DNA of 64,000 nt from Raillietiella orientalis (GCA_036172245.1 JAYWIR010000048.1:186001-250000), one strand, 5' to 3'. Shown: positions 6,853-57,478, numbered from the stretch's first letter. Notes: a model not told the origin generated them from the letters alone. A program made the numbers and translations.

Positions 6853-6895
6853 GGGGGAAGGGGTGGGGTGACGGATGGGGGGGGGGAGGGGAGGG
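6853..6895 (+). other. G-tract cluster (potential G-quadruplex) next to the GC-richer segment between the divergent Smurf and LAMP genes
   Basis: gggggaaggggtggggtgacggatggggggggggaggggaggg has six G-runs of 3 or more. Confidence 0.4.
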
Positions 6896-22290: not shown

Positions 22291-22397
22291 CGTGGTCCGT
22301 CTGTCTTCGACAGAAGGTAAAGTCAGCGCTTGACCCGTTCCAGGATGCTAGGTTTCCTCTGCCTAAACGGACTATCCTTCCCATGGGTGTGAGCGGA

Positions 22398-22731
22398 CCT
22401 CGAAAGAAGAGGAGCCGCAAGGCCGACCACGAGAGAGCCGCGTTTCCGGTCAGACGGTGGCAAGCGACATGGGTCGACGCTCTCGTCGCCATCCCACAGC
22501 CACGAGGAGCATTCGAAACACGCCGAGGCGAATGCGTCAGCTTCCTCATTCCCGTAGGAGAACAATCTTCGCAGCGCCGCCGCTTTCCCGATCGGCCGGC
22601 AAGCGAGCGACCGCGGAAGTTCCCCGCTGGATTCGCGGACCCTGCAGAGCGCTCCGGCGGACGGGGCGTGGCACCGGGAAGGGACCACCGTACCTTGTCG
22701 TTTCCTACTTCACAATGTCTCTCGCTGTCGG
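22398..22731 (+). repeat. 334-bp direct repeat identical to 38711-39044; diverged partial inverted copy at about 17877-18020
   Basis: Direct comparison, offset 16313. Identical peptides in the ORF track. Confidence 0.9.
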
Positions 22732-22973
22732 CGTTCCAATCATCAAGGAGGATATCTCTGACGACGACGGACTCGCCCCGCCGGATCGTCCGCTCTTCCG
22801 CAAGGGAGGAAAGTGGTGAGCAGAAGCTGCCACAGGACACCGGCGTCTTCCACTGCTCCAATGGACCCATGGCAGAGGAAAAACTCTCAAAGTCCGGATT
22901 GGAATGCTGCGAGTTTCCCAGAAATCAGCCCGCCTGTCCGAGTTACTGGCAGAGAGTGGGGACTGGCGCCAGC

Positions 22974-23226
22974 GTCTGCAGCGCCCCGAGGAACGCGACA
23001 TCACTTGAAAAGGAGGAATAACTGGAATGCAATGATCCCGAGTGTTAGGGGACGCTCGAGCTGCGCGCTCGAGACGGTGCGGCCCATCACGTGAGTCAGT
23101 GACGTGGCCGTTTTTTTCTAACGGTTTGCTCTTTTCCGGAAGGCGATGGGCGTACCGCGATAGCCGCAGACAGGGGGCCGCCTAAGGCATCAAGGGGTTG
23201 GCGCCTCAAAGAAAGCTTTGAATAAA
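22974..23226 (+). pseudogene. Degenerate paralog of the 78-aa microprotein family (exon 2, remnant of exon 3/3'UTR)
   Basis: VCSAPRNATSLEKEE*...RPIT, CAC|GTGAGT donor at about 23090, then a 3'UTR-like segment resembling copies A/B with AATAAA at 23221. Confidence 0.55.
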
Positions 23227-23569
23227 ACCTTGTTCTGGAAATCGTTGATTTGGACCGCTCGCGGGGACGAGCTTGCTCGTGCCAGAAGGCGAGCTGGGAC
23301 TCGGCGTTCAGACGCTGCAGACGATGGAGTGCCGGCTTCAGCGTATCGGATTCGCCCTAGGGGCAAAGCTCTTCCGACCCCGCATCGGTGCATCCCAGCC
23401 AGACACTTGAGCCCAGGGACTCGGGGCATTCCTTGCGCGTGGCGACCGACAGTTGCCCCGATGCAGGTACCAACTCCGGCAAACGGTTGCGTTGGTCCAG
23501 GAGAGCAGATGGATTTCCTGGTGCTCCGCCAACTGGATCGCCTGGAAAGAGGCCACAGCTGAGGCGTGG

Positions 23570-24270
23570 GCAAAAGAAAACGGCACGAGCTTGGAGCAAT
23601 CGTGCTGCATGCGATTTCCGAAATGCGCTGGCAGCTCGTTGCAGGAAATCATGGTCTGCCCGCGGGAGACCGCGGGGACGCGGAACGCAGTCTACTTGCA
23701 GCCGTGCTAAACACAACGCTACAGACTGGAAATGGGGATGTCCTTGCGAGATGGAAAGTATTTTGCGAGATCTTGCGTGGAAATAGGCAGCTGCTGGAAT
23801 GCTGGATGGCGAGTCAACTTTCCGACTCGTGCACCCTTTCTTCCCTCCCCGAAGGAATGCTTTGCCATGGGGAGCTGCTGGACATTCCCACAGAAAAGGT
23901 TCCTCCGGTGTTTGCGGACAGCCGAGTCCACGCTTGCCATCAAGCGGTAGGGCTCGGCATCCAAGTTCTTGCTCTGGGCGATCCCAGGCAACGCACGAGT
24001 CCGCCACTGGACGAGAGCAAGTGTGGCGGCAGACCATGCTACGTGTGGAAAGGGACAGGGACATCTTCCCGCACCTGTTGTTGGATCGTGCTTTGTTTTG
24101 TGCTGAGCCCCGCCACGCTCCCAATAGGAAACGACAGAGAGGTCTTGCGGTGCCTCTTCGCGCGCAACACGATGTCTCCTACAGCGTGCCTCGCGGTTCC
24201 GGGCCGCCTTCGTGGGATCGTAGAGGCGAGGAGAAGCCGCGCCGAGAAAGGCCCAGTCCCACGATGAGCC
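23570..24270 (+). mobile_element. Degenerate C-terminal ORF2 fragment of a Tx1-like LINE
   Basis: GMLCHGELLDIPTEK and PHLLLD motifs parallel KGLLRWSELLRVPTEE and PHLLFEC in the 39045-40372 copy. Confidence 0.55.
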
Positions 24271-24513
24271 CGTCTCAGTCTTCTGCTACTTCGCGAGGGA
24301 GGCGCCTTTTACATTTCAAGCAAAAAAACTAGAAAGCTTGCAACAGCATCTAGAGGAAGCCGAGGACGTCAGGGAGGAATCTGTCCAACTCACTTCTCAG
24401 GAGACCTTTTGTGTGTTTTCGCATTTCGTTCACCCCTCATTCCAAGTCTTCTGGGTGCTCCTCGGTGCAGCGGCTCACGAGAAGCAGCGCCATCCCTTCT
24501 TTTGCCCTCGTAG

Positions 24514-25987
24514 TGGTGGCGTGAAACCACTACGAGGAAAGACATCTTCTCATTGTACAGGACTGTTTTCCTTCACGACATTTTTTTCAGAAGAAACGTC
24601 TCGGGGTGAGCACGTGAAAACACGCTCGCGTGGAACGAACGGGAAGCACGTGCGATTCTCCTCGGTTGGCAAAGAAGGCCTTCAAATGCCTCGGTTGGCT
24701 CTCGTGTCGTTTCTCGATTGCAAGTTGGTCTTGCCGGGACGGACCACCATCTGGAGCACCTTCGTTGCCACCCACCGGCGCATCTTATTTTTCGTTTCCC
24801 CGCCCTCCATTCGACGAGAGTCCTGGAGCAGCGCCTGCCTCCTCAGGAAAGTTTTCAGGGGTTCTGCGAGTCTTGGATGGATCTGCTGGAGGCCTCGGTG
24901 GCGCCGCGTGAGCACGTCGGCTCAGGCATTCGGACGCGCGAGCAAACCGGGCACTTCCGCATGTGTGCCAACGTGGGAACTCCCCCGTGGCGCCCGCTTT
25001 CGCGCCTCGTCCTTCGCCGTGGCGGCGGTGTCCAATCGCTTTCGTGGTTGCGGGCGGCGACTTGGTTTGAAGATTCTTCTCGGATTTTACGCGGGAGATC
25101 ATTTGCTATCTGGAGTTGGAGCGCAGGGCATATCGTCGAAAATGGAGTATCAGCAGCGGAGCTAACATTACATGATCGCTGAGAACACACGAAAACCTCT
25201 GTGGACATTCCTGGTATGGTCCGAAGGCAATCGGACGTTTTTGCCACTCGAAGAGCATCAGGCGTTTTGCGAAAGGGTACGTGAAGATGACTTTGTTTTA
25301 CGGGATGAAAAGAATGATTTCGCTTGACTTTTGGAAAAAGGAATGATCACAAATCTCGAGAAACGCTGTACTGACTGACGAGGGCTCCATAGGATTTTGA
25401 TGTGGTTTTAGGATTTTAATCGAAAGGACAAACGAACAAGGAACGTAAGCTTAGACAGCCTGTTAATATCCTCGTGTGGCAAAACGAGGCCGACGGAGTT
25501 CGGAACGCTTTTGCAAGAGGAGGGATGGAAGCGCCGCGGTTTCCAGGCGAACAAGGCCAGGCAGAGGCCACGTGGGAAAATGGAACCTCGAAACAAGGTG
25601 GGAACTTCGAATGCCAACCGTGAGTGTTCTTCAATGCATTTGTGGTGCAGAAAACAATTCATGCGGTCCTGGAAATCTTCGTGACGTCGGCTTTCAACCA
25701 CCTGTTGCTTTGAGTCAGCGGAACCGGTTCGGTTTTCGTTTGGCGATGCTTCCTTGGAGCCGACCACTCACTTCGATAATGACACTGACAAATCGGATTA
25801 CAGGCTGCAAGGGGCTAGTCGGTATCTCAGTCGGTTGCTCCGGGAGAAGCCTTCTCGCGTTGCTTCCAGTTGGCAAGGTGCAATTCTAGCCGAATCCTGG
25901 ACGAACTATCAGCTGAAAGCCCCCGTGAAGTACGTTGGAGAATAATTCCGCCTGTGAAATTTAAGGTCTTTCCACACAGCAGCAAGA
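24514..25987. repeat. Right arm of 1474-bp inverted duplication (partner 16406-17879)
   Basis: Reverse complement of 16406-17879. Its inner boundary lies inside a 12-bp-stem hairpin (24506-24537). Confidence 0.95.
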
Positions 25988-26009
25988 CAGCACAAGGCGT
26001 TCGATTTTC

Positions 26010-26824
26010 ACCCGGATTTCTACGGGTTTAAAAATAAACTTTGTGAATAAGATGTTAATGGCTGTAGCAATGCTCCAGCCACGAGCGAAGAACCACGGAT
26101 CCTGCCAGGTCACCGGTTCGCAGACCGGTACGGTCCACCAAGGCAGCAGGGGAAGGGGGAAAACAAAAAAATTAAACAAAAAGAAAAAAAAAAAGAGTGA
26201 TTTCTTCCCGTAGGGTACGGGAAGGGATCACTGATGCTGCTGGGGCCGCATCATCCTTCTCAGGATGCCGGCTAGTTCTTGTTGTATTTGAGGATCCAGG
26301 TGGGGCCATCGTGACGCCCTCCTCAGGAATTGGGAGGCGCACTGGATGGCATCCTGATCGCTTGGTCCTCCCGTAGCTGTGCTCCATGCGGCGACGATCC
26401 CGCGAAGGCAGCACAAAGCTGCTATCGAGGCCGCTGGCCGAAGGGCGTCGGCAACAAAGAGGGCTTTTAAGGCGTCCCTGGGGTTGCCGCAGGGGATTCC
26501 GATGGACGCAAAGCGGAACCAAAGGGGCTGAAGGGCATCACAATCCACTAGGAGGTGGGGGAGGGACTCCCGTTCCCCACACCTAACACAATTGGGATCC
26601 ACCGCTCCCCAGGTCCAGTGGTGTCGGCGGGCGTTGCAGGGGAGTCCCCAGTGCTGCAACAGGAGTGCCGACTCCTGACATTTTGAGGGGAGGGTGGAAG
26701 TGTTCATGAGCACCGAGGGCCACTTCAGATGTTCAATCGGAACATGGAGCAGCGCTCCTAGCGCAGAAGTCCATTGGGAAGCGTACTCGGGGTCGCAGCG
26801 TCTGTTAACTGGCCCGTCTTCCAC
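26010..26824 (-). mobile_element. 3' end of Tx1-like LINE (zf-RVT-like CxxC...HLLxDC region and 3'UTR)
   Basis: ORF 26228-26824: HWGLPCNARRHHWTWGAVDPNCVRCGERESLPHLLVDC...RWPHL. T-rich 3'UTR ending in a CCCG...CCGGGT hairpin. Confidence 0.8.
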
Positions 26825-26859
26825 TCTCCCTGCTTCTTCTCCTTTCCGGAGATTATCAT

Positions 26860-27210
26860 GTTAACTTCCCATCCCGTATGCAGTTCGCTTCATGCAGAGA
26901 GCTACCGGATGGCCCCACCTGGTTAGAATGAAGGAGGACCTCGAGGGCATCCTGCAAAGGATGGGCCCTCCCCGTAGTGAAATGTGATCCCTTCCCGGCC
27001 CTCGAAACTCTTTTTGTTTTTTTTTCTCAATTTTATTTTTCTTTTTGTTTTCTCCCCCATCCCCTTCCACTGCCGAGGAGAGTCACACCGGGCTGCCTCC
27101 CGGCGTCCCGGCAGGTCCAGTGTTGCGTGGCCGTTAGTGGGGCCTTGTACCACGTTTTTTTGTATTGACCATGCAAGAGGTTTTTAATAAACGTCCCGGA
27201 GTATCCGGGT
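26860..27210 (+). mobile_element. Short 3'-terminal fragment of the same LINE family, opposite orientation
   Basis: FMQRATGWPHLVRMKEDLEGILQRM parallels FLRRASRWPHLDPQIQQELAGILRRM. Ends AATAAA(27186)cgtCCCGGAgtaTCCGGG. Confidence 0.7.
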
Positions 27211-27288
27211 GGCATCTCCAAACCCGGAGGGAAGGAGCCCCAGGGGAAACTCCTCACAGAACTCGCGGACCGAACGCTTGAAGAAGTC

Positions 27289-28065
27289 TCAATCCTCGAG
27301 ATTCCGGAGGGTGACGCCTCTCAGGAATTGGCGGAGATGATCCGCCGCACCTGGGAGCCTCGTCCAATCCCCCGGCAGACGCCACGCCCTGAATGGGGGT
27401 CCCTTATCGCATGGCCAAACATCGAATATCAGACGGAAATGGTCGGACAGCGTCGACGTGAGCCTTCCTCGTTTACCGACTCGTGTACACAGGTCGTGGT
27501 CGAGGAAAACGTGGTCGATGCTGTCCTGCATTTCCGGGTGTCCCTCCATCAAGTTGTGCGCACGCATGGCGGAGCACAACTCGATCGGCGCGTTATTCTG
27601 CGTGCAGCACGCACCTGAGAGCAGGCGGAGGTTAAAGTCTCCGGCTATCAGGTGGGCCTTGCGCACTCCTGCATCAGTCAGCCAGTCGCGCTTTAGGTAC
27701 TGGAAGAACTGAGTTCTTTCCGCGTACCCTTTGCTGCCGCTCGGAGCGTACACGTTGGTAACGATGAGATCGATCGTGTCGGACCAGCTGAGAATCATCT
27801 GTCCAACACGACCGTTGTCATCGAAGCGCACGTTCCTCACGGGGGCGTCGACGGCTGGCTTTAAAAAGAACGCGACACCGCAGGTGTTGCGGTAGCTGCA
27901 TCGCCAATACAACCGACCTCCTGCGATCCTCTCGATCTCCTCGACGTCCCTCGCAGTGATCACGTGGATCTCCTGCAGAAGCGCCAGGTCGAATTCTCGC
28001 AGGGTGTCGGCTGTATCTCGCCTGTTGCCGTCGTCGCGCAGCCCGTTGACATTCCAACAGGCCAC
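27289..28065 (-). mobile_element. APE (L1-EN) endonuclease domain of a Tx1/L1-like ORF2, truncated before the RT
   Basis: WNVNGLR, LLQEIH, GVAF, NVYAPS, IAGDFN, IDHVF and LSDHF motifs. Confidence 0.93.
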
Positions 28066-28097
28066 GCGGATCCGTCGGCGACAGGCGAGCCCAGGGG

Positions 28098-29901
28098 TTA
28101 TTCCTGGGAACGTGGCAGTGCGTCTCCCGCCACCTTATCGGGCGGAACGGATGGAGGAGAGGGTGCATCGCGCACCGCTTCTCCCTCCTCCATAGAGGCC
28201 GATTCGGCTGCAGGCATCTTCGGGGGGAGTAGGCGGGTATCCTCTACCTGCACTTCCTCCTCCATGAGGTCCAATTCGTCGGCTGGGCCGGTCGGTGGAA
28301 GGGGGAGGTTGTCACCTACCTGCTCCCCCTCCTCCATGGGGGTTGACAGCTGCCCGGTCACGGGAAGTGGGAAATTCCCTTCCTCCATTCCCACGCTGCT
28401 GGTTTCCCCCCCGGTTGCCGGTGCGTTCTCCTCCTTCTTGGTCGGGATGCGCCTCCTTGGATTCTTGGGCTTCCGTCCCGTCTTCTTTGGAGGCGCCTCC
28501 GCGGAGGAGGATGCACCACCGGCATCCGGATCAGCATCACCTTCTTCAGGTGCCTTCACCGCGGCCAGCCTTCAAAAGGTTTTCGTGGCTGGATCTCTCG
28601 GCCGACGAGTTCGGCCTCGAGCTCTTCCGCTGCCTGTTCGAAGGCGGCGTCCTCGATTACGGAGAGCGCGTCGCACGGCTCCTCCTCTGTTTTCAGAGAG
28701 GGTTCGCCTTCGGGGATCGCGGCTTCGACGCAAACGAGGAGGGGGATATCTTCCCCGGTGGCGACCTCTAAGGTCCCCACTCGCTCCAAAGTGACCGAGC
28801 ATTCGCGAAGTAATGCGCAGCGCTGTCTCCTATTCAAAGGTTTCGCGGATGGCTCCGCTTTCGGGCCTTCGGTTTTCTTTGGTTTCTTTGGCTTCACCGT
28901 CTTCCAGCCCTCGTTCTCACCAGCGTCGTCGGGAGTTTTCTCGACCGGCGTTTGCTCAGAGGGTTCGGGGTCTGGCTTCTGGGCATGCCTTGCTGTAGCC
29001 TCTTTGGGCTTCGACGTTTTTTCCGCGCGTGTCCCTTGAGCTTTTTTCAAAGCGGGGAGAGCCAGAGTTTCGCGCTTTGGGCACACTTTCCGGAGGTGGC
29101 CCTTTTCTTCGCATGAGAAACACTGGATGTGAGGGCACCGTTTTCTCAGGTGCCCTGTGGCATTGCAGTGTCCACAGTACTTGGGTTTCCCCACGTACCA
29201 GACATCAACCTTCTCGTTGGCGACGTCCAGCTTGTGGAGTGGTAACCCGTGGTTTTGATGCACGGTTACACGCGCTGCGGCCATGACACTAAACAGCCTT
29301 CCATAGGTTTGGAAGACGTTGGGCTTGGTCCAGAGAGCGTGCACCGTGCCGTACTTGCTGAGTTCCTCCTGCACGCCCTTTGTCGACATGCGGAGGGTAA
29401 CTCCCGTGAGGTGCGCCACTACGGAGCGGTCCTCAGTCACTGGGAAGAGCTTTCTGCCCTCCAGTGTAATGGGGGTGTTCAGCAGGCGCTGAACCAGCCT
29501 TGCATCCTTGCAAGTCAACTCCACCCGTTGACCTCCACTAAGAACGGAAAGACCTTCCAGCTCTTCCTCCTTCCCGTTAAGCCGCTGCAACTCCCTTTCG
29601 AAGTTGCGAGCGGTATTGCCAACAAAGATATTGTGTACCTAATAGATTAGGGACGGCTTATATCCTTGCTCCTTGTATGCGGCTTGTTCGGCCATGGCAG
29701 CAGCGGATGGTGCTGCAGCCACGGCGCTCCAGGTCCTCGTTGTGGGCGAAGACGGCTCCGAGGGCACGGTTGCACCCTTTTTCAAGGGGACGGATGCCTT
29801 CGCCTCCGTGGGGCGATCGCCCCCACCATCGTGGGCTGGGGAGAGGAACTAGCCTCTCCCACTCCGATCTCCATCGCGGTGCCCGCAGGCATTTCTGCCA
29901 T
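28098..29901 (-). mobile_element. Gag-like ORF1 of the Tx1/L1-like element with two CCHC zinc knuckles (disrupted)
   Basis: CGHCNATGHLRKRC and CFSCEEKGHLRKVC, with TWSAVAA upstream. In-frame TAG at 29639-29641 and frameshifts near 29800 and 28560. Lies directly upstream of the APE ORF. Confidence 0.88.
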
Positions 29902-30870
29902 GGGACACCGACGATGTGTCATACACTCTCACAAACGAAACGGAAAAAAAAAACTTCCCAAACTGGAGCGGTCGGAGTGTAGGAAAAACACGTCCACCAC
30001 GCTTCGACGAGGAAGGCCCTTGGTCACCGCATTCGTGTGTTCGGAAACGACGCGCTTGGCCGACTGCCAAGTACCGGTCTCCCGAATCAAGTGTTTGATG
30101 AGGAACCGATGTTATCAGGAATGGAGTACGAGATTTTTTCATGAGACGTGCACGGGGAAATCCGTTTGAGAAACATCGATGGCGGTCGAGCGTCCCTGGT
30201 CCTCATCGTCCAACAGACCAGCTGCTGCAGACTGCCAGACCGAACGCTCGGCCCTCGCCTCATACTCCGTGAGGTGCCAGTCATCCGGGAATGTGGAAAA
30301 AGGGGTGCGAGTCTGCAGAAGCGCTCTGCGGTTGGCCACACCTTCTTGGAAGCCGCGGCAGCAGGTGCAAGAAGAACGGGCAGCAAACTCGCAGACAGCT
30401 CTTTTCGGATGGTCTCAGTTCGCAAGCTCATGAAGGACGAAGCCCCGGAGGTGCTGGCGAAGGCGTTTTGCGGCCACCCGAGGGCTTGATCTGTCGGCCT
30501 GCATCCTTCGGACTTGCAATGGAGATTCCTTGCCTTACGGAAGAAGTTCCCATTCCAGCCCTGGTTGGTCGGTGAACATGGACGGCACGCCATCCTTTTC
30601 ACCCATTCGGGAAAGCCGCCGTTCGTCGAGGAACGCGTGGTCCATCTGTTTGTTTTGATTTTGTGTTGTACACGTGGCTTCCCACCCCCCTGCAAGTTAC
30701 CTGCTCATTGTTCATCTCAGGGTGGGCAGCAACGGACCAAGCGCGTCGTTTCCGAACACACGAATGCGGTGACTAAGTGCACGAGCTCAAAATAAACACC
30801 GTGCAATGGCGGCCGCCCCTTCAAATTGCCCGGAGAAAAACAAAAACCAGCCTTTTGGCAAGAGAAAGAT

Positions 30871-31487
30871 TTTATTCAGACATTCCCCTGAGGCACGTCC
30901 TCCTTGATGTTCCAGGAGGTCCCCAGACAGCGGCTATAGCAGCACGCCTATCGCCTCACCGGGCCTCGTCTCCTGGAAAAGAACAGACTTTGTGAAAAAA
31001 GCGGTGGCGTCGGAGACTCACGTGACCGGTCGAGAGGCATGCGCTCCCGACTCCAGCCGTCCTCTGCCCCCCGACAGAGCACGGCGGGCAGCCTCTTCCT
31101 TCCTGCTGCCCTCGTTCTTATCAGTCGGTGCTGCGCAGGCTCTCTTGACTGCGCTCCAGATCTGAAAATAAAACGGCATCATTACAGGGAAGGGGGAGCA
31201 AGAAAAGCCGCCAAGGGGGGTGCGAAAGAGCACACCCGAAGGTGGGCTGCTGCCCTGCGCTAGGCAGTCGGAAGGCGCCCGCAACCAACTGCCAGGGCGA
31301 AGGCGGCCGCGCACCGGCTCCACTCACCTATTCCCGTCAGTGATTCACGTGGCCGGTCTCAGCCTCTGAAACCCGGATCTTAAGCGTCCTCTGCCTTCCG
31401 TCAGCGAACACTTGGAATCATTGCATTCCATGCCTCCTGCTCCTCAAGGGTTGATGTTGCCCAAGCATTCCTGAGGGCGCTGCAGAT
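30871..31487 (-). pseudogene. Inverted chimeric copy (C) of the microprotein gene: type-2 exon fused to type-1 intron 1, exon 2 (31161-31022) and exon 3 (30972-30948)
   Basis: About 410 bp near-identical inverted match to 32747-33158. Exon 1 is reduced to CGG GAA TAG before the donor. AATAAA at 30876-30871. Confidence 0.7.
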
Positions 31488-32231
31488 CTGAAAGTACAAG
31501 GAGATTGGAGAGGTCTGAAAGAAAAGCATGAAAGAAAAGCAGCGACGGGGGAAGCGAAAGAGCACGCCCAAAGGTGGGCTGCTGCGCTGCGCGATGCTGG
31601 CGGAAGGCAAGCTAAGGAGGTGAGCGCGTGAGGATCCTCACCATGCGAAACCTGCGAATGCGAAACCTGAGCACAGTCAAGGAAGCATTTACCATCGCCA
31701 TTTACCATCGGAGACATGGTCCAGGAAATCACGCGCACGAAAGGCTTCCGCGGGAACCAAATGTCTTGGCAACCGTGCGGAGAATTCCGAATCTTGCTGC
31801 TCAATTCAACCACAAGCGATGGATTTTGTTTTGCCCGGAGAAGACGCAGGCAGCTGCAGGGAGGGGAGAAGCGTTCTCCGATCATCGTTCACGGCATACA
31901 GGAGGCGCCCATTCGCATGCCCGCCTCCTTGGAGACGCCTCCTTTTCCCCTCAAACACGCGGACTCGCCCGCGGGAGTGACTGCAGCGGGCCATCCATCC
32001 GCTTTGCAACCTGCAACGCGCAGACAGGGAGGTGAGGCACTCCGCCGGATCGTTCGCCTTTCGGAACGAGGACAACGTGATCACGAGAAGCCACCAGTGG
32101 CACCAACCTCTACCTCTGAAGGACCGATGCCGCTGGAGAAACTCAGAAATTCAGGATTGGGACGCTCCGCGTTTCCCTCTAATCAGCCCGCTTGTCCGAG
32201 TTACTGGCAGAGAGTGGAGAGCGACGCCAGC

Positions 32232-32480
32232 ATCTGCGGCGCACTCAGAAACCCCGGCGCAGGATCGACACCTCAAGAGGGAGACAGGTCGCAATGGAAG
32301 GATGCCGACCGTTCTCTGTCGGGGGGCAGAGGACGGTTGGGGTCGGGATCCCCTCGCCCTCGACCAGTCACGTGAGTGAGAGAAACGACCGCGTTTCCAG
32401 CTACTGGCAGGGAGTGGGGACAGGTGGCGGTCGTTGCTGACTCTTTTCGCAGCGATCCGAAGTGCTCCATGACCTACTAA
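32232..32480 (+). pseudogene. Type-2 paralog of the microprotein gene, exons 2-3 only (32232-32371, 32453-32480)
   Basis: 140-nt exon ICGALRNPGAG...SLSGGRGRLGSGSPRPRPVT with CAC|GTGAGT donor, ctgac-tcttttcgcag acceptor, then DPKCSMTY*. The 5' side is replaced by unrelated sequence. Confidence 0.55.
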
Positions 32481-32676
32481 TTGTTCTGTAAGGGAGAAGA
32501 AGTTGTTTTTCGATGCGGCACTGAAGGCACAGCAGAACTTCTTCATTCATGGTCTCCTTGGTTACACTGCAGAATTTCTTCATGGATAGTTTCCTCAGTT
32601 ACCATATTCAAAGGAGAAAGAAAACACAGTCCGGACTGCAGGCGCGTCTTTCGCCAATTAGGAAGAACCGGACACA

Positions 32677-33128
32677 ATGAACCAACGCAGGATATTGATG
32701 TGGGGGTTGGGCGCAGCGGCGGCTGCAGCCTGGATTTACCGGGAAGAGGTGAGTGGAGCCGGTGCGCGGCCGCCTTCGCACTAGCAGTTGGTTGCGGGCG
32801 CCTTCCGACTGCCTAGCGCAGGGCAGCAGCCCACCTTCGGGTGTGCTCTTTCGCACCCCCCTTGGCGGCTTTTCTTGCTCACCCTTCCCTGTAATGATGC
32901 CGTTTTATTTTCAGATCTGGAGCGCAGTCAAGAGAGCCTGCGCAGCACCGACTGCTAAGAACGAGGGCAGCAGAAAGGAAGAGGCTGCCCGCCGTGCTCT
33001 GTCGGGGGGCAGAGGACGGCTGGAGTCGGGAGCGCATGCCTCTCGACCGGTCACGTGAGTCTCCGACGCCACCGCTTTTTTCACAAAGTCTGTTCTTTTC
33101 CAGGAGACGAGGCCCGGTGAGGCGATAG
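32677..33128 (+). CDS. Putative 78-aa membrane-anchored microprotein, copy A (3 exons)
   Basis: Exons 32677-32748, 32915-33054, 33104-33128 with GTGAGT donors and polypyrimidine-CAG acceptors. Product MNQRRILMWGLGAAAAAAWIYREEIWSAVKRACAAPTAKNEGSRKEEAARRALSGGRGRLESGAHASRPVTRRGPVRR*. AATAAA at 33200. Confidence 0.65.
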
Positions 33129-33429
33129 GCGTGCTGCTATAGCCGCTGTCTGGGGACCCCCTGGGGCACCAAGGGGGAGGTTTCCCAGGGGAAGCTGTAA
33201 ATAAAATCTTTTTCTTGCGAAAAGGTTGGTTTTGCGAGTTTCTTCCGTAGAATTATTTCCTGATAGGGGATCCTTTCCAAGTCCCCCTCAAAGAAGGAAA
33301 TGGGAGCGTTCCCTTCCGCGAGTTCCTGCGGAAAGAGTAGGAAAGGAGATTCATTTTGGGCTTTTGCTTCGGAGACAACCAGGCTGGGCGGGATCTCCAT
33401 TCCCGGGATCCCTCTCCAGAAAAGAGTAC

Positions 33430-35520
33430 ACCATTCAATCTCTGAATAAAGCAATTTAAGGCGATGAACTAATCACAGAACACATGCTGGAAGAAGGGGC
33501 ATACAAAAATCGAATCTCCAAATCGAAAACATCCTGAAAAAGAAAGAACGGAATCTTTTCAAGAAAAAACTTGGCATGACCCTTCTGAATAAGAATAGCA
33601 TTCGAAAATTCTAGAATAGGAGAAGAAGGAGAGCAATGAGCACGATACTAGGATACAGAAATTGAACTTGCGCTCACGGGACCTCCAAAAGGTAGAGGAA
33701 TGCTTTTCTCCGAGACTGCAATTCCCCAAAGCACCGAATGAAAAATGAAAGGAAAACATAGTACTCGGAGGAAACCGAGAGATATCTCCTATGAACACGA
33801 CGCCCTTCTCTACTGACGAAGCTGCAAGTCACCTAAGAAAAGCAGAAAAATTGAGCCCAGGAATGGATGGGATCACTTACGCAGGATGGAGGAAAGTGCA
33901 TCCGAACTGCGAAGTGATGACCCCTGCATTCAAAATTCTATCAGGAACGAAGAGAACACTATCCTCCTGGAAGTGTTCGAAGACCATTATGCTCCAGAAC
34001 TCTTCACGAAATGGCAGATTGGAGACCGGTCTCCAGATCCATCATCATCGGTAGATTGTATGCGGATTGCGTTTCCACAAAAGTCAAAGAAAGGATTATA
34101 AGCAGTGAGATCAGAAGGCTTTTGCAGAAAGGTTTGATGCCATTGGATGGAGTACGTGATGAGTACTTCAACTTGCAGACGGGTTTTCATCATGCTGGAA
34201 GATGTTGCAAAGACCCAGGACTAGACTTCGTTGACCTCACAAACGCTTTTCGAAACCTGTCGCACGAGTTTCTGGTAGGAACTCTTCAGGAAACAGAAGT
34301 AGGCGAGAAGTCGCGCTCATGAAAGAAGAATATGAGCACAGCACGGCGTTCATCCAAGTGGAGTTCGGAGTCGCAAGAGTACTGACATTACAACGAGCAG
34401 CAAACCAAGGATGCCTTCTGAGTTCCTTGCTCTTGATATGTTCTTCAGCGTCGGTAATCAAGGCATTCCAGGAACCGTATGTGGAAGACAGTTTATTAAC
34501 TCACCCCAATGACCGGGTGATTCATGTGGTTACCGAAGAAGAACTATAAAAGGGTATATGTCACGCAGAGTAATTACTACAAAGAATCGGACTCACTATC
34601 AATCCTCCAAAGCGCGCAACAGTATTCTACGAAAGAAAAATGCCAAAAGGCTTTAAACACATAGAGATCCTTCTCAGGAATGTCCACATTCCGAACACTG
34701 AATTTTCAGAAATCCACAAGCATTTTAGACAGCCATTCGGAGTCGAGGTCTTCAACAAACAACCTACAAAAGTAGAAATCTCTATTAAAGCGGAAAAATT
34801 TCCATCAGACCGTCACTGTGGGAAAAGTCTGATGCTCTCAAGGTATTTCTGTTTTCTGACCTCATTCACCCCGAGAGGCTAGGGACGCTTCCAAAATCTG
34901 ATTGGAATTTTTTAGACATCAAGAAACGAAGGCTAGCGAAGGAAATAATACACCTTCCTCCGAGTACATATACGATGACAGGAAAGAAGGTTGCCTTGGG
35001 GAAATGAGGCTATCCGATGAAGCTAATGAGGCCTTTTAAGTAGTGGGGGCTAAGCTGGTTCTACAGGGGAAGATCTTCGAATAGATTTAATTGTTTTGCA
35101 AGCTTGCTCGATGCCTATGCCAAATTTCTTGGGCTCCTGATCTGACGGATTATTTGGCAGCCAATGCACTAAAAGGGACTGCTAAACTACAGGTGACAAC
35201 GAAATATGCCCAAAAGGTTGCTTCTGGAAAACTACCAGTCGCTCTCTCCTGCGGTGAAGACGCCGAACCTGCTTTCGGGAGGGAAGGAGCACTCTGCAAA
35301 AGACACGGAAGGTAACACTGCAGCTTGTCTCGCATTTTTGGAGAGGCGAGGATTCCGACGGTGCTCTCTGCTGCATCCGCCATGTGCTTTTGGCCTCCGA
35401 GGTGCACGCCGTGCTATCGGGGTGCGGGTGCCCAGTGCGACCACCTGTTTCCCTGTCCAACCGGCCAAAGAAGGAAGTTTCGTGGGACGCCAGGAAATTT
35501 CCTGCAGCCGTAGCGCGTGA
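33430..35520 (+). mobile_element. Degenerate NeSL/Utopia-like (RLE-type) non-LTR retrotransposon RT region
   Basis: Frameshifted ORFs give TPFSTDEAASHLRKAEKLSPGMDGITY, WRPVS, QKGLMPLDGV, FVDLTNAF, NQGCLLSSLL and GLTINPPK in RT order. Boundaries are approximate. Confidence 0.82.
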
Positions 35521-37198
35521 TACGAGAAGGGACGTTGATGTCAGGATAAGAGGGTGACGATGGGAAAGGGAGACTCTGTGATGTGGAGAGGGAGCAGAAA
35601 TGCAGATCCGGAGTCTCGAGAAGAAGATTCCTCTCAATTCGTTGTGTATCAAGCGTTAGGTGGGGAGGGGCGATGTTGACCAAAACGAAAGTATGCTTTG
35701 CTCAGGATGCAGTTAGGGGATTTCGAGCCGAAATTTGTCCTCAGGCATTTAGACTGTGGGAAAGACGTTGGCGGGAAGGAGAGAAAACTTGTGACCGGTA
35801 AACGGCTCGTCGGACCACTGATGATGGACAATCGCCATATGGGTAACCGTTCGATCTCTTTTGGTTTCCATAGGGTTCGTGCAACGGTTTTCTTGGAGCA
35901 AGCGAAGGTAGAACAAACTGATTGCAGCCACCAGAATGGGTAGGATGACGTGAGGGGAGAGAGAGGAATAAGGCAAAGGTGGGGCTGAAAAAAAAAAAAG
36001 CTTTTTTTCGAATGGAAATGAAGTCTCGGAGCACTGGAAAGAATGGGAGAAAACAGCCGAGTGATGCGCGCGGCCTCTCAGAAGGATGTTCTTTCTTCAG
36101 GAAGGAAGGATTGTAATGATGACAACCTCACCTGCAAAATAAGAAGCAGAAGTCTCGCTGTTGGGAATGCTGTGCTTTTGAAGACAAAGGAAATGTAATG
36201 AGAGAAAAATGCGATGGTAACGTTCTAGGGAAATTGGGGGAGCAGTGCTGCAACGGACATGGTGTAGGAGTCAAGTGTTCCTACTTTTGTGCACGATACG
36301 CTTGCTTGATGAAATGACGCTTCCGTGACGTGTGCTACAGACTGTAGAGATCACAGTGGATGCGATTGGTTAATGCGAAATCAGGGCACGAGACGATTCG
36401 TGCTGCGCATGTGCAAGGCGGTGAACGCGCGCACACTGGCTGCTGGACATGAAGCCAGCAGAACACACGACGTTGGAAGATTGGCGGCAGTTGCGCCGTG
36501 TTGCAGGAGAGCTGCTCATGACTTTGGGTTTGTGCTGGCAGAGGCAGCTGCAGATGAGGGCTGCTGTGAACACCTCCGCCTTCGTCTATTGGCAATGATC
36601 AGCACGAAGAGATGAAGCAAGTGCGCGGCTGCCAAAGAGGTCGGAAACGCCACGTGCGAAAACCAGGAAAAGAGGGGCAGCAACGGAAAGGAGGAAGAAG
36701 ACGACTTCGCACCCGGGAGAGCCGGGGTATAAAGGAGAAGGCGGTGGTATGCTCTCACTAGCGCAGCTTCCACTCAGAACAAACGAAGAGACTGCTAATG
36801 CAGTGGTGGCGATGGCGCTGCCAGAGACGGCATGACGGAACTTCGACGGCTCTCGTGCCGGCGCACTGCGACAGACAACCACCCCTCGTGCTGCCGACGG
36901 CGACCACAGCAGACACGGACCCCATGGCTCTTGCTGAAAAGTAGACGAATCGAGCTGGCATACAAGCAGCTGCGGTGAGAAAAAAAGCAAAAACCATCAA
37001 CGCAGCGAATGCTGTCCGAACTGTAGTCTTCTTCGCTGCAGCAAAATCCACCTGTGTTCCAAGACTGAGGCAACCTTTCAGAAGAGTATCCATCCGCACC
37101 TGGGAAACTGTCGGTATCCATGGAAAAGGAACTCCCCGAGAAATAGAGATGTCCCGACTGCTTACGTCCCTATCGCAAGGGAAGAAGACCTTGCTGGC

Positions 37199-37704
37199 AT
37201 GAACGGGCAAGAAAAGAATACTGCTGTGGGTGCTGGGCGCAGCAGCGGCTTTATCCTCACTATACAAATGGGTTAAGCGCAAGCTCCACCGCCACCGCTG
37301 CCTTTTGTCGCCCAAGTATTTTTTCATGTAGCCGCTTTTGCTAGCTTTCCGCCAGCATCGCGCAGCAGAGCTGCCGACGCTCGGGAGCGCGGCGAGCTTT
37401 TTTGCTTCCTCCTTCGCTGCTTTCTTTGCCTGCCTTTCGAATCTTGTGTTTTCAGATCTATAGCACCCTCAGGAACGTTTGGGCACCATCAACCCTCGAG
37501 GAGCTGGAGGAATCGCAAAGCAATGATGCCGACCGTTCTCTATCGGGGGGCAGAGGACGGTTGGGGTCGGGATCCCGTCGCCCTCGACCAGTCACGTGAG
37601 TGAGAGAAACGACCGCGTTTCCAGCTACTGGCAGGGAGTGGGGACAGGTGGCGGTCGTTGCTGACTCTTTTCGCAACGATCCGAAGTGCTCCATGACCTA
37701 CTAA
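37199..37704 (+). pseudogene. Type-2 paralog of the microprotein gene (disrupted)
   Basis: ATG AAC GGG, +1 frameshift, then KKRILLWVLGAAAALSSLYKW|GT. 140-nt exon 37456-37595 (IYSTLRNVWAP...SGGRGRLGSGSRRPRPVT). The exon-3 acceptor reads CAA instead of the CAG of the 32.4-kb copy. Confidence 0.55.
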
Positions 37705-38430
37705 TTGTTCTGTAAGGGAGAAGAAGTTGCTCTTCGACGCGGCACTGAAGGCACAGCAGAACTTCTTCATTCATGGTCTCCTTGGTTACACTGCAGAATT
37801 TCTTCATCAATGGTTTCCTCAGTTACTATATTCAAAGGAGAAAGCAAACACAGTCCGGAGAGCAGGCGCGTCTTTCGCCAATTAGGAAGAAACGGGCGCA
37901 ATGAACGGACGAAGGCTTTTGATGTGGGGTCTGGGCGCAGCGGCGGCTGCAGCCTGGATTTACCGGGAAGAGGTGAGTGGAGCCGGTGCGCGGCCGCCTT
38001 CGCCCTGGCAGTTGGTTGCGGGCGCCTTCCGACTGCCTAGCGCAGGGCAGCAGCCCACCTTCGGGTGTGCTCTTTCGCACCCCCCTTGGCGGCTTTTCTT
38101 GCTCACCCTTCCCTGTAATGATGCCGTTTTATTTTCAGATCTGGAGCGCAGTCAAGCGAGCCTGCGCAGCACCGACTGCTAAGAACGAGGGCAGCAGAAA
38201 GGAAAAGGCTGCCCGCCGTGCTCTGTCGGGGGGCACAGGACGGCTGGAGTCGGGAGCGCATGCCTCTAGACCAGTCACGTGAGTCTCTGACGCGACCGCT
38301 TTTTTCAAACATTGTTCTTTTCTAGGAGACGAGGCCCGGTAAGGCGATAGGCGTACCGCCAAAGCCGCGGTCAGGAGACCTCCTGGAACATCAAGGAGGA
38401 CGTGCCTCTGGGGAATGTCTGAATAAAATC
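37525..38430 (+). repeat. About 0.9-kb direct repeat of 32301-33210 (type-2 tail plus type-1 microgene)
   Basis: Offset 5224. Near-identical ORF-track peptides in both copies. Confidence 0.9.
37901..38350 (+). CDS. Putative 78-aa membrane-anchored microprotein, copy B (3 exons)
   Basis: Exons 37901-37972, 38139-38278, 38326-38350 with the same splice sites and phases as copy A. MNGRRLLMWGLGAAAAAAWIYREE...RPVTRRGPVRR*. AATAAA at 38422. Confidence 0.65.
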
Positions 38431-39044
38431 TTTCTCTACAAATCGCTGATCTGGACCACTGAAGGAAAGTCGGTGTCCAGTGAGGGTGGGCCAAGGACGG
38501 GGAGAGACATCCTCTTTAGGTGGCAAGGTTTTGTTAGTGTGCAGCAGACGTACGCTGTTTCGCACGAAGATTGGAAAGGAACCTGTTCCTGGTCATCTCA
38601 TGGCATGAGTCACAACAAAGGGTTGCTCCACCCGGCAAAACAAATGCCGTGGAACAAACTCTCCCTCAGGGCTTCAAGAGAACGCTGACCTGCCCACGGA
38701 TGCGAGCGGGCCTCGAAAGAAGAGGAGCCGCAAGGCCGACCACGAGAGAGCCGCGTTTCCGGTCAGACGGTGGCAAGCGACATGGGTCGACGCTCTCGTC
38801 GCCATCCCACAGCCACGAGGAGCATTCGAAACACGCCGAGGCGAATGCGTCAGCTTCCTCATTCCCGTAGGAGAACAATCTTCGCAGCGCCGCCGCTTTC
38901 CCGATCGGCCGGCAAGCGAGCGACCGCGGAAGTTCCCCGCTGGATTCGCGGACCCTGCAGAGCGCTCCGGCGGACGGGGCGTGGCACCGGGAAGGGACCA
39001 CCGTACCTTGTCGTTTCCTACTTCACAATGTCTCTCGCTGTCGG

Positions 39045-40571
39045 ACTGCCTTCACAAAGCCGAGACTGCTCTGGGCCCGTTCCAAGGCGGCAGGTTTCTC
39101 CTGTCGGAACGGGCCTTCGTGTGTAACATTTTCGTTGCCCCCCTCCTCCGTCCCCTCTTTTTTGTTTGTCCCCCTCTCTACTCGGCTACGCGCCGGGCGC
39201 AACGCCTGTTGCGTAACGCCCTGTGGGGACCAGCGAGGTCCAGGATACGCCTGAAGGACTTGGCGGCTCCTCGGCGGGATGCAGGATTGGGCATCCTGAC
39301 GCTGGAGCGGATCGGACTGCTAGTGCAGTTCCGCATGCTGGCACTTTGCGCCCAGCTATGGACTACTCCCTGGTGTGCTCCAGCGCGGCTGCTGCTGCGG
39401 CGCTGCACGGGTGGCGACGGACTGCGTTCGTTGCACCTGCGCACGGAGCGCGTCCAAAGAGGATTCGGCTTCCCTCTGAAGCAGCTCGCCTCGCTTCTGG
39501 AAAAGCATGCGTGGATCTCCTGCCGGCCGACGAGCATCAATGCCTGGAGGCAGGAAGCCTTATCGTCCTGGGCAGAGCAACAGGATGTGTCCCGTTTGGA
39601 ACTCCGTTGCGTTAACATTTCCCCATACTGTCCAGTGGGGGAGGTGCTCAAGGACCAGGACCAGTGGACATGCCTAGCCGCTAAGCATCTTGCAGTAGCA
39701 CAGTCTGCACTGATGGTGCGAGACGACAGTGACCTACCGGCGAGGTGGGAGGTCGCCTTCGAAATCGCAGGCGAAAACCGACTGCTGGGAGGCTGGAGGA
39801 CTTGCGAGCTGGCAGACGCTGCCACGCCTCGCATTCGTGCCAAGGGACTTCTCCGGTGGAGCGAGCTCCTCAGGGTGCCCACCGAAGAACTTGTGGTCCC
39901 TTCTGCGTGTTTGGACGCGACTGTCTCCCCCCTGAGGTGGAAACAGGGAGCTTTTCTGCTGGTGCATTGGGGTCTGTACTGCAACCAGCGCGCGCACCTG
40001 GTTTCCGGGGGAGTTGCGTCCCCGAACTGTGCCAAAAGCGGAGCGGTGAAATCGCGTCCGCATTTGCTGTTTGAATGCGGTGCCCTCCAGGAGCTGTGGC
40101 GGCGGCTGTCTTCAGCGCTCCTGCACCCCGGACACATCGTAATGGATTCTGTGCGCCGCTTCTTCACGCGTGGCTGTCTATCTCTGGGAGCGGTCGTCGC
40201 AATCATCTGCTGCGTCCTTGCCACTGTCAGGGCCCGCCACGTATTGCAGGTGCGAGCGGTCCCAACATCGGTCCCCGACACTGCAGCCTGCAACCTGCAA
40301 ATGGCTGCCGGGTGGCCACACCTTGGAGCAGAAGTGAGGACGGAGATTGCCGGCATTCACCGCCGGTTCTGAGAATAGGAACGGCTGGACAGCATACCTT
40401 TATCCCCACCCTCCCACCCTATTTATTTATTTATTATCCCCTCCCTCCCGTTCCGAACTCTCAGTGTGCCCGGCCTGCGAGCTGGGAACCCTCTTCCCCA
40501 TCTTCTGTTCCCCTTGCCTGGGAACACAGTTCCCAGATGATATTATTAATAAACGTCCCGGCGCAACCGGG
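39045..40571 (+). mobile_element. Tx1-like LINE, post-RT half of ORF2 (open to 40372) plus 3'UTR
   Basis: LSERAFVCNIF, LAAPRRDAGLGI (P...GGLG-like), HWGLYCN...PNC...PHLLFEC and GWPHL. 3' end AATAAA(40548)cgtCCCGGcgcaaCCGGG. The start of ORF 38981 is chimeric with the 334-bp repeat. Confidence 0.82.
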
Positions 40572-48890: not shown

Positions 48891-49712
48891 AAATGTGCTT
48901 CTCTTTGGTTCACCTGGCACAGGGAAAAACCTGTTGGTTAGAGCAGTTGCTTCTCAGTGCTCGACGACCTTTTTCAACATTTCCGCCAGTTCCTTGGTTA
49001 GCAAGTGGAAAGGGGAATCGGAGAAATCGGTTCGACTCCTATTTGAGTTGGCACGTTCACGCGCTCCATCCGTAATTTTTATCGATGAAATTGACAGCCT
49101 AATAAACCACAGAGATAGCAGCGTTGAGCAGGAAGGAACGAGGCGCCTAAAAACGGAAATGTTGATCCAGTTAGATGGATTGGTTCAAAATTCCTCCCAA
49201 GTGTTGTTACTTTGTACCACAAACATGCCATGGTATGTGTCATTCGGAATCGCTCATTTCTGTGCTCGTAGGGAATTAGACATTTCGTTCACTCGAAGGA
49301 TGGAAGAACGCATTTACGTCGGTTTGCCGGATGCCAAGTCCAGATCTTTGTTATTCCAGAAATTTCTCCCTAGAAACTTGGGCTCCGATGAAGCAAAGTT
49401 CGAAGTTTGTGTTGATTACGAAGAGTGTGCGCTGCACAGCGAAGGATTCTCCGGCAGCGATATACAAACGATTTGCAGGAAAGTTGCAAAGATGCACCTC
49501 CGAAACGTGTTGAGGCGTTACGAAGGTATTTATGACCTCAGACAGTCATCCCGTCACGTCACACAGGTGCTCCTGGAGGGAAAAGAGACAGTTTGTTTCA
49601 CGAGACCATCCTCACCTCTGACTTGCTAGATCTGTTGTCCAAGTTAGAGCCGCTGTCGGAACCTTTGAGATCGAAGTATTCGCTATGGAAACAGCGAATT
49701 CATCTGGGCTGA
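48891..49712 (+). CDS. KATNAL2: Katanin p60-like 2 AAA ATPase, 3' exons only (5' exons not found)
   Basis: LLFGSPGTGKN, TTFFNISASSLVSKWKGESEK, IFIDEID, RRLKTEMLIQLDG, TNMPW|ELD, RRMEERIYVGLP, EGFSGSDI. Introns 49233-49271 (39 nt) and 49526-49566 (41 nt). Last exon ...TSDLLDLLSKLEP...KYSLWKQRIHLG*. Confidence 0.8.
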
Positions 49713-57164: not shown

Positions 57165-57478
57165 AGTGCGCCGTCACCGCCTGGAGCATTTTCAGTCCGT
57201 GCAACGTGCCGTGCGGCAAAGGGCAGCGCACGAGGCAGAGGAACTACGTGCTGCCCTTCATGGCGAAGATGAAGGGTTGCTACCTGCAGCTGGTGGAGGA
57301 GAAGATTTGCGAGAATCCCGTTTCTTGCGAGCAGGAAGACGCGGAAAAGTTAGGGGAGAGCAGAGTGCTGCCTCCCGCGAGCGTGCAGCCGATCGGTCCG
57401 CGTGACGTCTCCCGTCCCAAGGCATCGGGAGGAGATGAATCCCCTCTTTTCGTCACCGGGAGATCCGCACCGATGTAA
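57165..57478 (+). CDS. Orphan terminal exon encoding a spondin-type thrombospondin type-1 (TSP1) domain
   Basis: Strong acceptor ttttctctctttccag, then CAVTAWSIFSPCNVPCGKGQRTRQRNYVLPFMAKMKGCYLQLVEEKIC (C..W..FS.C...CG.G.R.R.R...C.......C), stop at 57476-57478. Confidence 0.72.

Follow-up and report, generated by a model that had tools for sequence, protein, structure and literature searches.

A candidate young family of orphan genes and pseudogenes, copied locally within a LINE-rich block of Raillietiella orientalis DNA

Background

Lineage-specific families of orphan small proteins are known from repeat-rich genome compartments, the secreted protein and effector families of filamentous microbes being one example. 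Ampliconic or palindrome-borne multicopy genes are homogenised by gene conversion. Gene fragments are also carried by transposons, as in capture by Pack-MULEs and Helitrons or in LINE transduction.

Here we describe a unit, copied several times within a 64,000-nucleotide stretch of R. orientalis DNA (the window, by which we mean the whole stretch analysed), that bears some likeness to all three. With orphan small-protein families it shares a short open reading frame (ORF), an N-terminal hydrophobic segment, a lack of homologues, transposon surroundings, local duplication, many pseudogenised copies and fast divergence of paralogues (dN/dS ~1.3 here); it differs in having only one Cys and only two intact copies, and it is known here from sequence alone. 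As in ampliconic genes, there are copies in direct orientation (A and B), two copies facing each other as a 494-nt inverted repeat of 96% identity (A and C) and alternating tracts of exchange, but the unit measures ~1 kb against tens to hundreds of kb. The arms of the inverted repeat also take in non-coding sequence, and one of them has lost exon 1. Transposon-carried fragments resemble the unit in their partial copies, different 5' ends and adjoining LINE pieces, as well as in the common 3' limit of its copies just past AATAAA; the unit differs from them in that neither element termini nor target-site duplications, poly(A) tails or any transposase/RT similarity were found in it, and in retaining its introns.

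Our tentative reading, to which we assign a probability of roughly 0.42, is that the unit is a small lineage-restricted gene of the pol-II type that was copied locally, two type-1 copies likely encoding a 78-aa peptide. Taken together, the copies plausibly form a young family of putatively coding orphan genes, pseudogenes among them. Transcription, splicing, translation, targeting and any function of the unit are predicted from the DNA, and the proposed course of events is as follows. A gene made up of three exons and two GT-AG introns, with an AATAAA signal and a promoter region that includes a 37-nt tandem duplication, would have been copied inside a GC-rich block rich in L1-like LINEs, first as tandem type-2/type-1 pairs and then as a direct pair and an inverted pair. 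The copies would exchange sequence through gene conversion and most would have decayed, while the two type-1 copies that are intact have most likely kept their coding capacity for a very basic peptide, in which an RR-flanked N-terminal hydrophobic segment of 16 residues may serve either as signal peptide or as a weak signal anchor of type II and the remainder would form a Gly/Arg-rich tail, probably disordered.

Results and discussion

Anatomy of the intact copies

The frame of copy A runs through three exons from 32677 to 33128 on the plus strand and, with splicing as predicted, is open over 78 aa (Table 1). The sequence-only reading had proposed this three-exon model, and its sizes and open frame were reproduced in both A and B; the AATAAA that it placed about 70 nt downstream measures ~72 nt past the stop, at 33200 and 38422. 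In favour of coding, neither copy has lost its ATG, its open frame, its stop or any of the four consensus splice sites. The donors are GTGAGT, and the acceptors are CAG or TAG preceded by pyrimidines.

Table 1. Coordinates of the unit, its copies and associated features in the window (a caret marks an exon border)
Feature	Position	Strand	Details
37-nt direct tandem duplication (x2)	32528-32602	+	75-150 nt 5' of copy A ATG
Copy A exon 1	32677-32748	+	72 nt; MNQRRILMWGLGAAAAAAWIYREE; ATG at 32677, then donor GTGAGTGG
Copy A intron 1	32749-32914	+	166 nt; least diverged part of the unit
Copy A exon 2	32915-33054	+	140 nt; acceptor TTATTTTCAG, donor GTGAGTCT
Copy A intron 2	33055-33103	+	49 nt; acceptor TCTTTTCCAG
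Copy A exon 3	33104-33128	+	25 nt; ..RRGPVRR, stop TAG
Copy A AATAAA	33200-33205	+	~72 nt past stop; signal also at the corresponding alignment position in B, C and D
37-nt tandem duplication 5' of copy B	37752-37826	+	same duplication as upstream of copy A
Copy B (type 1)	37901-38350	+	exons 37901-37972, 38139-38278, 38326-38350; introns 166 and 47 nt; 78 aa, open
Copy B AATAAA	38422-38427	+	~72 nt past stop
Copy C (type 1, inverted)	30871-31336	-	exon 2 31161-31022; intron 2 49 nt; exon 3 30972-30948; TTTATT at 30871
Type-2 copy A, exon-2-like	32232-32371	+	140 nt, open; gccagc^ATC, no AG acceptor at type-1 position
Type-2 copy B	37199-37595	+	exon-1-like 37199-37271; intron-1-like 37272-37455; exon-2-like 37456-37595 (140 nt, open)
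Type-2 copy C	31349-31615	-	intron-1-like core 31532-31608 (84% to type-1 intron); exon-2-like 31487-31349
Old degenerate copy D	22778-23251	+	exon-2-like 22974-23090 (117 nt, 2 stops); AATAAA at 23221

Substitutions between copies A and B

Copies A and B form a single 927-nt duplication, 93% identical, whose non-coding parts are conserved about equally to the exons. Divergence between them amounts to 1.2% in intron 1 (2 differences, against 3 between A and C), 4.9% over the 388 nt upstream, 5.5% in the exons, 12-16% in intron 2 and 27% in the 3' part, the exons being less conserved than intron 1 in a comparison that is confounded by gene conversion. An intron better conserved than the exons, and an upstream non-coding part equal to them, favour a different account: a gene-like repeat that is dead or does not code, all copies of which, A and B included, are neutral or constrained at the RNA or DNA level only. 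What was duplicated in this recombination-prone, LINE-rich block would then have been either a small gene of the ancestor or a transcription unit that was spliced but non-coding, and the 78-codon frame would owe its survival to the youth of the A-B pair and the GC-richness of the DNA. We take this to be a serious possibility, if short of an even chance. That the 78-codon frame and eight splice-site bases should outlast 13 changes is probably not an improbable outcome, and chance ORFs of 100-300 aa overlap one another in all frames throughout the GC-rich block.

The position of the A-B changes speaks against a dead repeat. The coding sequences differ at 13 nucleotides in 11 codons, divided into seven synonymous codons, the very ones that the sequence-only reading had listed (CGC/CGA, GGG/GGT, TTG/CTG, AGA/CGA, CGA/AGA, CCG/CCA, GTG/GTA), and four replaced ones, the number it had given (Q3G, I6L, E47K and R57T). 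Nei-Gojobori counting assigns 8 changes to 61.5 synonymous sites and 5 to 172.5 non-synonymous sites (pN/pS 0.22; p 0.006 by Fisher's test), and 20,000 random placements of the changes gave a mean of 3.6 synonymous and a probability of 0.008 for at least 8, a significance that depends on 13 substitutions in one sequence pair. The excess is specific to the proposed frame, which has the lowest A-B pN/pS of the six; the other five range from 0.40 to 3.88, none with p < 0.1. Moreover, the sole A-B indel within the gene, of 2 nt, is confined to intron 2 and the exons are free of indels.

Older comparisons give a different picture. Type-1 and type-2 exon 2 differ at ~31-37% of ungapped positions (43-53 of 138), with a dN/dS of 1.32-1.40, so that purifying selection is not indicated at this depth and a decaying repeat is favoured. 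The sequence-only reading had called for a genome-wide check of dN/dS; among the copies of the window the result is divided: it supports coding between A and B and speaks against it between the types. Type-2 copies A and B give 0.57 (p 0.17), a value matched by an antisense frame. One antisense frame of the spliced coding sequence is stop-free too, which again suits a non-coding repeat. An antisense gene was itself considered, in the form of ORFs at 32914-33252, 38138-38515 and 30940-31260 that run from exon 2 to the 3' part, and was rejected: these ORFs cross the 2-nt A-B indel of intron 2 and therefore are not co-linear proteins, and the A-B pN/pS of antisense frames, 0.68-2.2, also counts against it.

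Truncated, decayed and converted copies

Seven exon-2-like copies lie in the window, none of them outside 22.9-38.4 kb: two are intact, copy C is without exon 1, and four are decayed or incomplete. The multicopy family first proposed for the locus is real as a set of local copies but overstated, since just two of the seven are complete and open, and the copy list given at that time did not have the third type-1 copy, C, on the minus strand. A majority of broken or incomplete copies (5/7) is also what a dead repeat would leave. Copy C extends on its intron-1 side to 31336, its homology to A and B ending at the exon 1/intron 1 border, so that exon 1 is absent.

The type-2 copies are in several stages of decay. 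Type-2 copy A has neither exon 1 nor intron 1 on its upstream side. Type-2 copy B, described earlier as a paralogue starting at 37199, does have an exon-1-like part, but this is 73 nt long, a net change of +1 that shifts its ATG out of the frame in which the homologous hydrophobic peptide is read. Since the ~50 nt before this ATG are still homologous to type 1, and the homologous frame retains the hydrophobic peptide KRILLWVLGAAAALSSLYKW, the ancestor would have been a complete gene of this layout. The sequences at 31487 and 22974 had been called remnants, and both are broken: the exon-2-like part of type-2 copy C has 139 nt and three stops, and copy D has the two stops given in Table 1. The upstream part of copy D is ~75% identical to 32042-32242, and its intron-2/exon-3/3' part 68% to 33051-33232.

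Across this range of divergence the exon borders have persisted. The best conserved block is the exon-2 donor, CAC^GTGA(G/A)T, present in 7/7 copies, including the type-2 copies for which CAC^GTGA had been claimed. Exon 2 is exactly 140 nt long in five of the seven; in the open type-2 copies at 32232-32371 and 37456-37595 this length goes together, as had been stated, with retention of LSGGRGRL..G....RPV. The intron-1 acceptor TTTCAG^ATCT is retained in 5/7 copies; the ttcag^ATC ascribed to the type-2 paralogues and remnants is there at 37456 and 31487, but 32232 and 22974 have gccagc^ATC or gccagc^GTC instead. AATAAA is retained in all four copies that have the 3' part.

The copies are gene-conversion mosaics. 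At informative sites copy C sides with B, then with A and then with B again, in alternating tracts of B and C against A and of A and C against B, and the site counts are consequently not independent. A 23-nt core coding for LSGGRGR is nearly identical between the types at the nucleotide level, a pattern that conversion, or constraint on the DNA or RNA, would explain no less well than constraint on the protein.

Chance exons and structured RNA

The model was chosen by visual inspection, in GC-rich sequence where open frames abound, and the exon/intron reading could in principle be a chance pattern laid over an anonymous repeat. We scanned 16001-40500, a 24.5-kb GC-rich block, on both strands for three-exon models with an ATG, GTRAGT donors, YAG acceptors with at least 8 of 10 pyrimidines, introns of 35-300 nt and a coding sequence of at least 180 nt. 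The scan returned eight models, all at loci A and B. Among 300 order-2 Markov simulations of such a block only 3.7% contained one locus or more and 0% contained two or more, a result made optimistic by criteria that were chosen after the model had been seen. This rarity, the splice signals kept across paralogues that are ~70-75% identical, and the synonymous excess between A and B leave chance as a very improbable explanation. The rarity of the anatomy in simulated sequence weighs against a dead repeat as well.

A structured RNA, hosted by the intron or standing alone (snoRNA, miRNA), was rejected. An Rfam search of 16000-41000 at E values up to 1 returned nothing in the unit and two chance-level matches, both outside it. 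The fold of intron 1 has a z-score of -1.9 or -1.88 depending on the strand, only slightly better than shuffles, and its hairpin, as read by eye, is not kept in the type-2 intron copy. Function at the RNA level, which the non-coding account would allow, is accordingly not indicated either.

The predicted peptide

The predicted 78-aa product of copies A and B is very basic, with a pI of about 11.8 and a single Cys. Its N-terminal Ala-rich segment of 16 residues, ILMWGLGAAAAAAWIY, is flanked by RR and REE and is weakly hydrophobic (maximum Kyte-Doolittle mean 1.39 over 15 residues); it could fit a weak anchor or a signal peptide.

The sequence-only reading had recognised no homologue, and none was found in any library searched. 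The spliced protein, compared with proteins of 42-137 aa, gave 13 candidates, none at E <= 1; exon 2 (46 aa) had no match among 1.84 billion representatives; Pfam placed no family on the exon-2 ORFs, the 219-aa ORF at 31716-32372 or the 93-aa unspliced frame of copy B. The best Atlas score was 0.77 (recognition 1131), which is no homologue, a metagenome scan with a 35-nt degenerate core motif gave no loci, and a literature search with motif strings found no paper. The lack of homologues suits a dead repeat, but it is weakened as evidence on the peptide by poor sampling of the lineage, to which other genes of the window point: the matches of an AAA exon, mostly from plants, reach 49% identity at best, and a LINE ORF has none.

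A more specific version of the gene reading, which we consider doubtful, would make the unit a very young orphan family, possibly born in repeat DNA, that encodes a signal-anchored or secreted 78-aa peptide, RR-flanked, extremely basic and rich in Gly and Arg, and survives, in a palindromic block rich in LINEs, as two or three copies that convert one another, older ones meanwhile decaying. If true, it would provide a live example of the birth and death of a spliced microprotein gene. More generally, if the 78-aa product is made, the locus would hold an unannotated, taxonomically restricted microprotein gene missed by standard gene finders and homology searches, and the series from intact through 5'-truncated and frameshifted to stop-riddled copies would document birth-and-death and gene conversion at one locus. 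If the product is not made, the locus would be an ordinary one, a decaying gene-like repeat in a transposon graveyard, and a warning that GC-rich repeats may bear convincing exon models.

The LINE neighbourhood

All copies lie within a 16-kb stretch dense in L1-like LINE pieces, and copy C adjoins the upstream side of a minus-strand LINE. This setting would be explained, along with the multiplication of the unit, if the unit belonged to the interior of a composite mobile element not yet characterised, or were a gene fragment captured by one, and the homology among A, B, C and D does stop ~15-30 nt past AATAAA. We nonetheless hold such an element to be improbable. The flanks differ from copy to copy, with three different sequences after A, B and C; the unit has no RT, EN or transposase similarity; and no terminal inverted repeats surround a single unit, the inverted repeat being simply A facing C. 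Introns are kept and a poly(A) tail is absent, so the unit is not a LINE-mediated retrocopy; a processed retrocopy was rejected on the same grounds, with introns present in A, B and C and no A-run after AATAAA. Derivation from within an L1-like LINE was likewise rejected, given the differing flanks of A, B, C and D and the lack of Pfam matches in the ORFs of the unit. Nor does the unit adjoin the L1-like LINE ORFs beside it without interruption. A locally copied small gene remains our preferred reading.

Reading the LINE termini at 26.1-26.3 kb and 40.3-40.7 kb gave no clean junctions, and a tRNA scan gave no hits. A LINE-rich coccidian was considered as the source of the sequence, but the LINEs described in PMC4337577 are old and inactive, whereas the LINE ORFs of the window are long and open. 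Pfam identifies in the L1-like pieces an ORF1 with zf-CCHC, Exo_endo_phos (E 1.7e-16) and zf-RVT. Their EN is closest to that of human L1, and the ORF at 38609-40369 resembles zf-RVT/RVT_1 clusters.

Anatomy and copy number of the unit

We tentatively interpret the unit, a gene-like repeat of about 1 kb with three exons, two introns and a 78-codon frame, as a small gene, young and lineage-restricted, of which two copies are live and five are dead or incomplete (probability roughly 0.4). In such a family, copies would duplicate locally, invert, undergo conversion and decay. The sequence-only reading had described a multicopy small-protein family; its anatomy is real and an nhmmer profile of the exon-2 region found seven copies in the 64-kb window, all within 22,926-38,348, but just two of them (type-1 copies A and B, hereafter A and B) are intact.

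Its exon model was reproduced exactly when region 30800-38500 was read and then spliced by script, yielding an open 78-aa frame in each of A and B. Both carry GTGAGT donors, and their acceptors are TTATTTTCAG and TCTTTTC(C/T)AG. The coding sequences differ at 13 nt in 11 codons, in agreement with the seven synonymous and four replaced codons counted previously. A 37-nt tandem duplication preceding both intact copies may serve as a promoter element. Intron 1 contains a long imperfect hairpin (32761-32838), better paired in the B/C variant (GCCCTG..CAGGGC) than in the A variant and absent as a conserved feature from the type-2 intron copies.

Features of the unit and of the neighbouring LINE sequences
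Feature	Coordinates	Strand	Remarks
Type-1 copy A, exons	32677-32748, 32915-33054, 33104-33128		Introns 166 and 49 nt; sequence read and scripted splicing
Type-1 copy B, exons	37901-37972, 38139-38278, 38326-38350		Introns 166 and 47 nt; sequence read and scripted splicing
AATAAA	33200 (A), 38422 (B)
37-nt tandem duplication	32528-32602 (A), 37752-37826 (B)		75-150 nt upstream of ATG
Type-1 copy C	Exon 2 31161-31022, exon 3 30972-30948, TTTATT 30871	minus
Type-2 copy A, exon-2-like	32232-32371		140 nt, open, LSGGRGRL..RPV kept
Type-2 copy B, exon-2-like	37456-37595		140 nt, open, LSGGRGRL..RPV kept
Type-2 copy C	31487-31349		3 stops
Copy D (old, degenerate)	22974-23090		2 stops
L1-like LINE ORF1, zinc knuckle (zf-CCHC)	29638-28559	minus
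L1-like endonuclease	28134-27292	minus	Exo_endo_phos, E 1.7e-16
zf-RVT	26860-26231	minus
LINE-like ORF	38609-40369	plus	Atlas neighbours with zf-RVT/RVT_1, score 0.96

A and B belong to a single 927-nt duplication (32289-33215 versus 37513-38437, 93.1% identity) that begins in the middle of a type-2 exon. Type-1 copy C and A are the two arms of a 494-nt inverted repeat (96% identity), and copy C, whose homology ends precisely where exon 1 meets intron 1, has no exon 1. The exon length and LSGGRGRL motif ascribed to the diverged type-2 paralogs are indeed kept in type-2 A and B. Their reported splice context held for the donor block, CAC/GTGA(G/A)T, which is the best conserved block and occurs in 7/7 copies, and for the acceptor in some copies only: type-2 B and C keep it, whereas type-2 A has none at the type-1 position. 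Type-2 A also has no exon 1. The exon-1-like segment of type-2 B measures 73 nt, and its ATG does not share the frame of the homologous hydrophobic peptide.

Support for the exon model

A generic three-exon scan of 16001-40500 on both strands required an initial ATG, GTRAGT donors, acceptors combining YAG with 8 or more pyrimidines in 10, introns between 35 and 300 nt and a minimum CDS length of 180 nt. It returned eight models, each of them a variant at locus A or locus B. Among 300 order-2 Markov simulations, two loci never arose and at least one did in 3.7%, a figure that the true chance probability somewhat exceeds because the thresholds were picked after the model had been seen. Splice and poly(A) signals are kept across paralogues only ~70-75% identical, the acceptor TTTCAG/ATCT in 5/7 copies and AATAAA in all four that have a 3' part. 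TCACGTGA is an 8-nt palindrome, so a DNA-level reason for its conservation is possible; we take it to resemble an E-box/G-box core. The observation is real, and the exon model exceeds what chance would give.

Tests of coding potential

By Nei-Gojobori counting, A and B differ by 8 synonymous changes over 61.5 sites and 5 non-synonymous changes over 172.5 sites (pN/pS = 0.22, Fisher p 0.006). When the same 13 changes were placed at random 20,000 times, the synonymous ones averaged 3.6, with P(at least 8) = 0.008. Ratios in the remaining five frames were 0.40, 3.88, 0.68, 1.33 and 2.16, and in none of them did p fall below 0.1. The sole A-B indel within the gene (2 nt) is in intron 2. The sequence-only reading had proposed dN/dS across copies as a check; the low A-B value favours coding, but type-1 versus type-2 exon 2 gave 1.32-1.40. 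The type-2 A versus B value (0.57, p 0.17) is equalled by an antisense frame.

That all copies are now neutral or non-coding is nearly as likely as the small-gene reading. The exons do not stand out when A and B are compared segment by segment: differences affect 19 of 388 positions upstream (4.9%), 7 of 72 in exon 1 (9.7%), 2 of 166 in intron 1 (1.2%), 5 of 140 in exon 2 (3.6%), 6 of 47 plus 2 gap positions in intron 2 (12-16%), 1 of 25 in exon 3 (4.0%) and 21 of 78 in the 3' part (27%). Across A, B and C, informative sites pass from BC/A to AC/B (32933-33154) and back to BC/A (33159-33212), a gene-conversion mosaic. Conversion accounts for how little intron 1 has diverged, and it leaves the counted substitutions less independent of one another than the tests suppose. 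The argument for coding rests on 13 substitutions.

Predicted product

Under the small-gene reading, the predicted 78-aa product has a pI of 11.75, with 17 Arg+Lys against 6 Asp+Glu, 16 Ala and 8 Gly, and begins with MN(Q/G)RR, which leads into a hydrophobic, Ala-rich stretch of 16 residues followed by REE. The N-terminal anchor of the sequence-only reading would be this stretch, whose maximum Kyte-Doolittle mean (1.39 over 15 residues) is below usual transmembrane strength; it would be compatible with a signal peptide or weak type II anchor. Di-arginine ER signals occur in type II proteins; the Arg pair among the first five residues is reminiscent of one. The homologous frame in exon 1 of type-2 B still reads KRILLWVLGAAAALSSLYKW; the hydrophobic character therefore predates the A/B split.

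Relation to mobile elements

The unit sits in a GC-rich block at 16-40 kb, and the compositional break is sharp, from 29-38% GC (42% in 6001-8000) in 1-16000, which is almost without long ORFs, to 52-60% in 16001-40000. LINE sequences share this block, and the unit may have been carried within an uncharacterised composite element, although this is unlikely. The flanks of A, B, C and D all differ beyond ~15-30 nt past AATAAA, and no two copies have the same LINE sequence contiguous with the unit. The unit also resembles neither reverse transcriptase (RT) nor endonuclease (EN), has kept its introns and lacks a poly(A) tail; it is therefore neither an internal piece of a LINE nor a retrocopy.

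The nearest solved relatives of the endonuclease are L1 endonucleases (E 1.6e-6 to 9e-6). The minus-strand LINE (26231-29638) has long open segments; just ~430 nt separate its EN and zf-RVT ORFs, so it seems to have lost the RT core. At 33921-34319 an RVT_1 match is weak and below the cut-off (E 0.066). A 356-nt element occurs at 22376-22731, upstream of copy D, and at 38689-39044 (98.6% identical), where, within the ORF at 38609-40369, it is joined in frame to the C-terminal portion of a protein resembling LINE ORF2; a third copy (17877-18015) is partial, inverted and ~90% identical. The arms of a 1474-nt inverted repeat (16406-17879 and 24514-25987), are 6.6 kb apart and 100% identical, which an inverted duplication of very recent date or an artefact of assembly would explain.

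Searches for relatives

The spliced protein, searched against proteins of 42-137 aa, gave 13 candidates with none at E ≤1, and exon 2 had no match among 1.84 billion representatives. The best Atlas score was 0.77 (recognition 1131), none of the ORFs overlapping the unit matched a Pfam family, the unit had no Rfam match, and its motif strings were absent from the literature searched. The fold z of intron 1 is -1.9 and -1.88 on the two strands. These negatives carry little weight, the lineage being poorly represented: the katanin-like AAA exon in the window reaches 49% identity at best, and a 587-aa LINE ORF has no match. If coding, the unit would belong with the orphan small-ORF families of repeat-rich DNA.

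The katanin-p60-like AAA ATPase exon (48841-49626, plus strand; Pfam AAA E 2.3e-32) contains a 39-nt in-frame intron (GTATGT...TAG, 49233-49271) splitting the conserved PW/ELD motif, so very short introns occur in this genome. Two thrombospondin type-1 (TSP1) domains, ~1.6 kb apart on the plus strand (57119-57475 and 58896-59375; E 1e-10 and 2e-13), probably belong to a single multi-TSP1 gene, as exons on either side of a long GC-rich intron.
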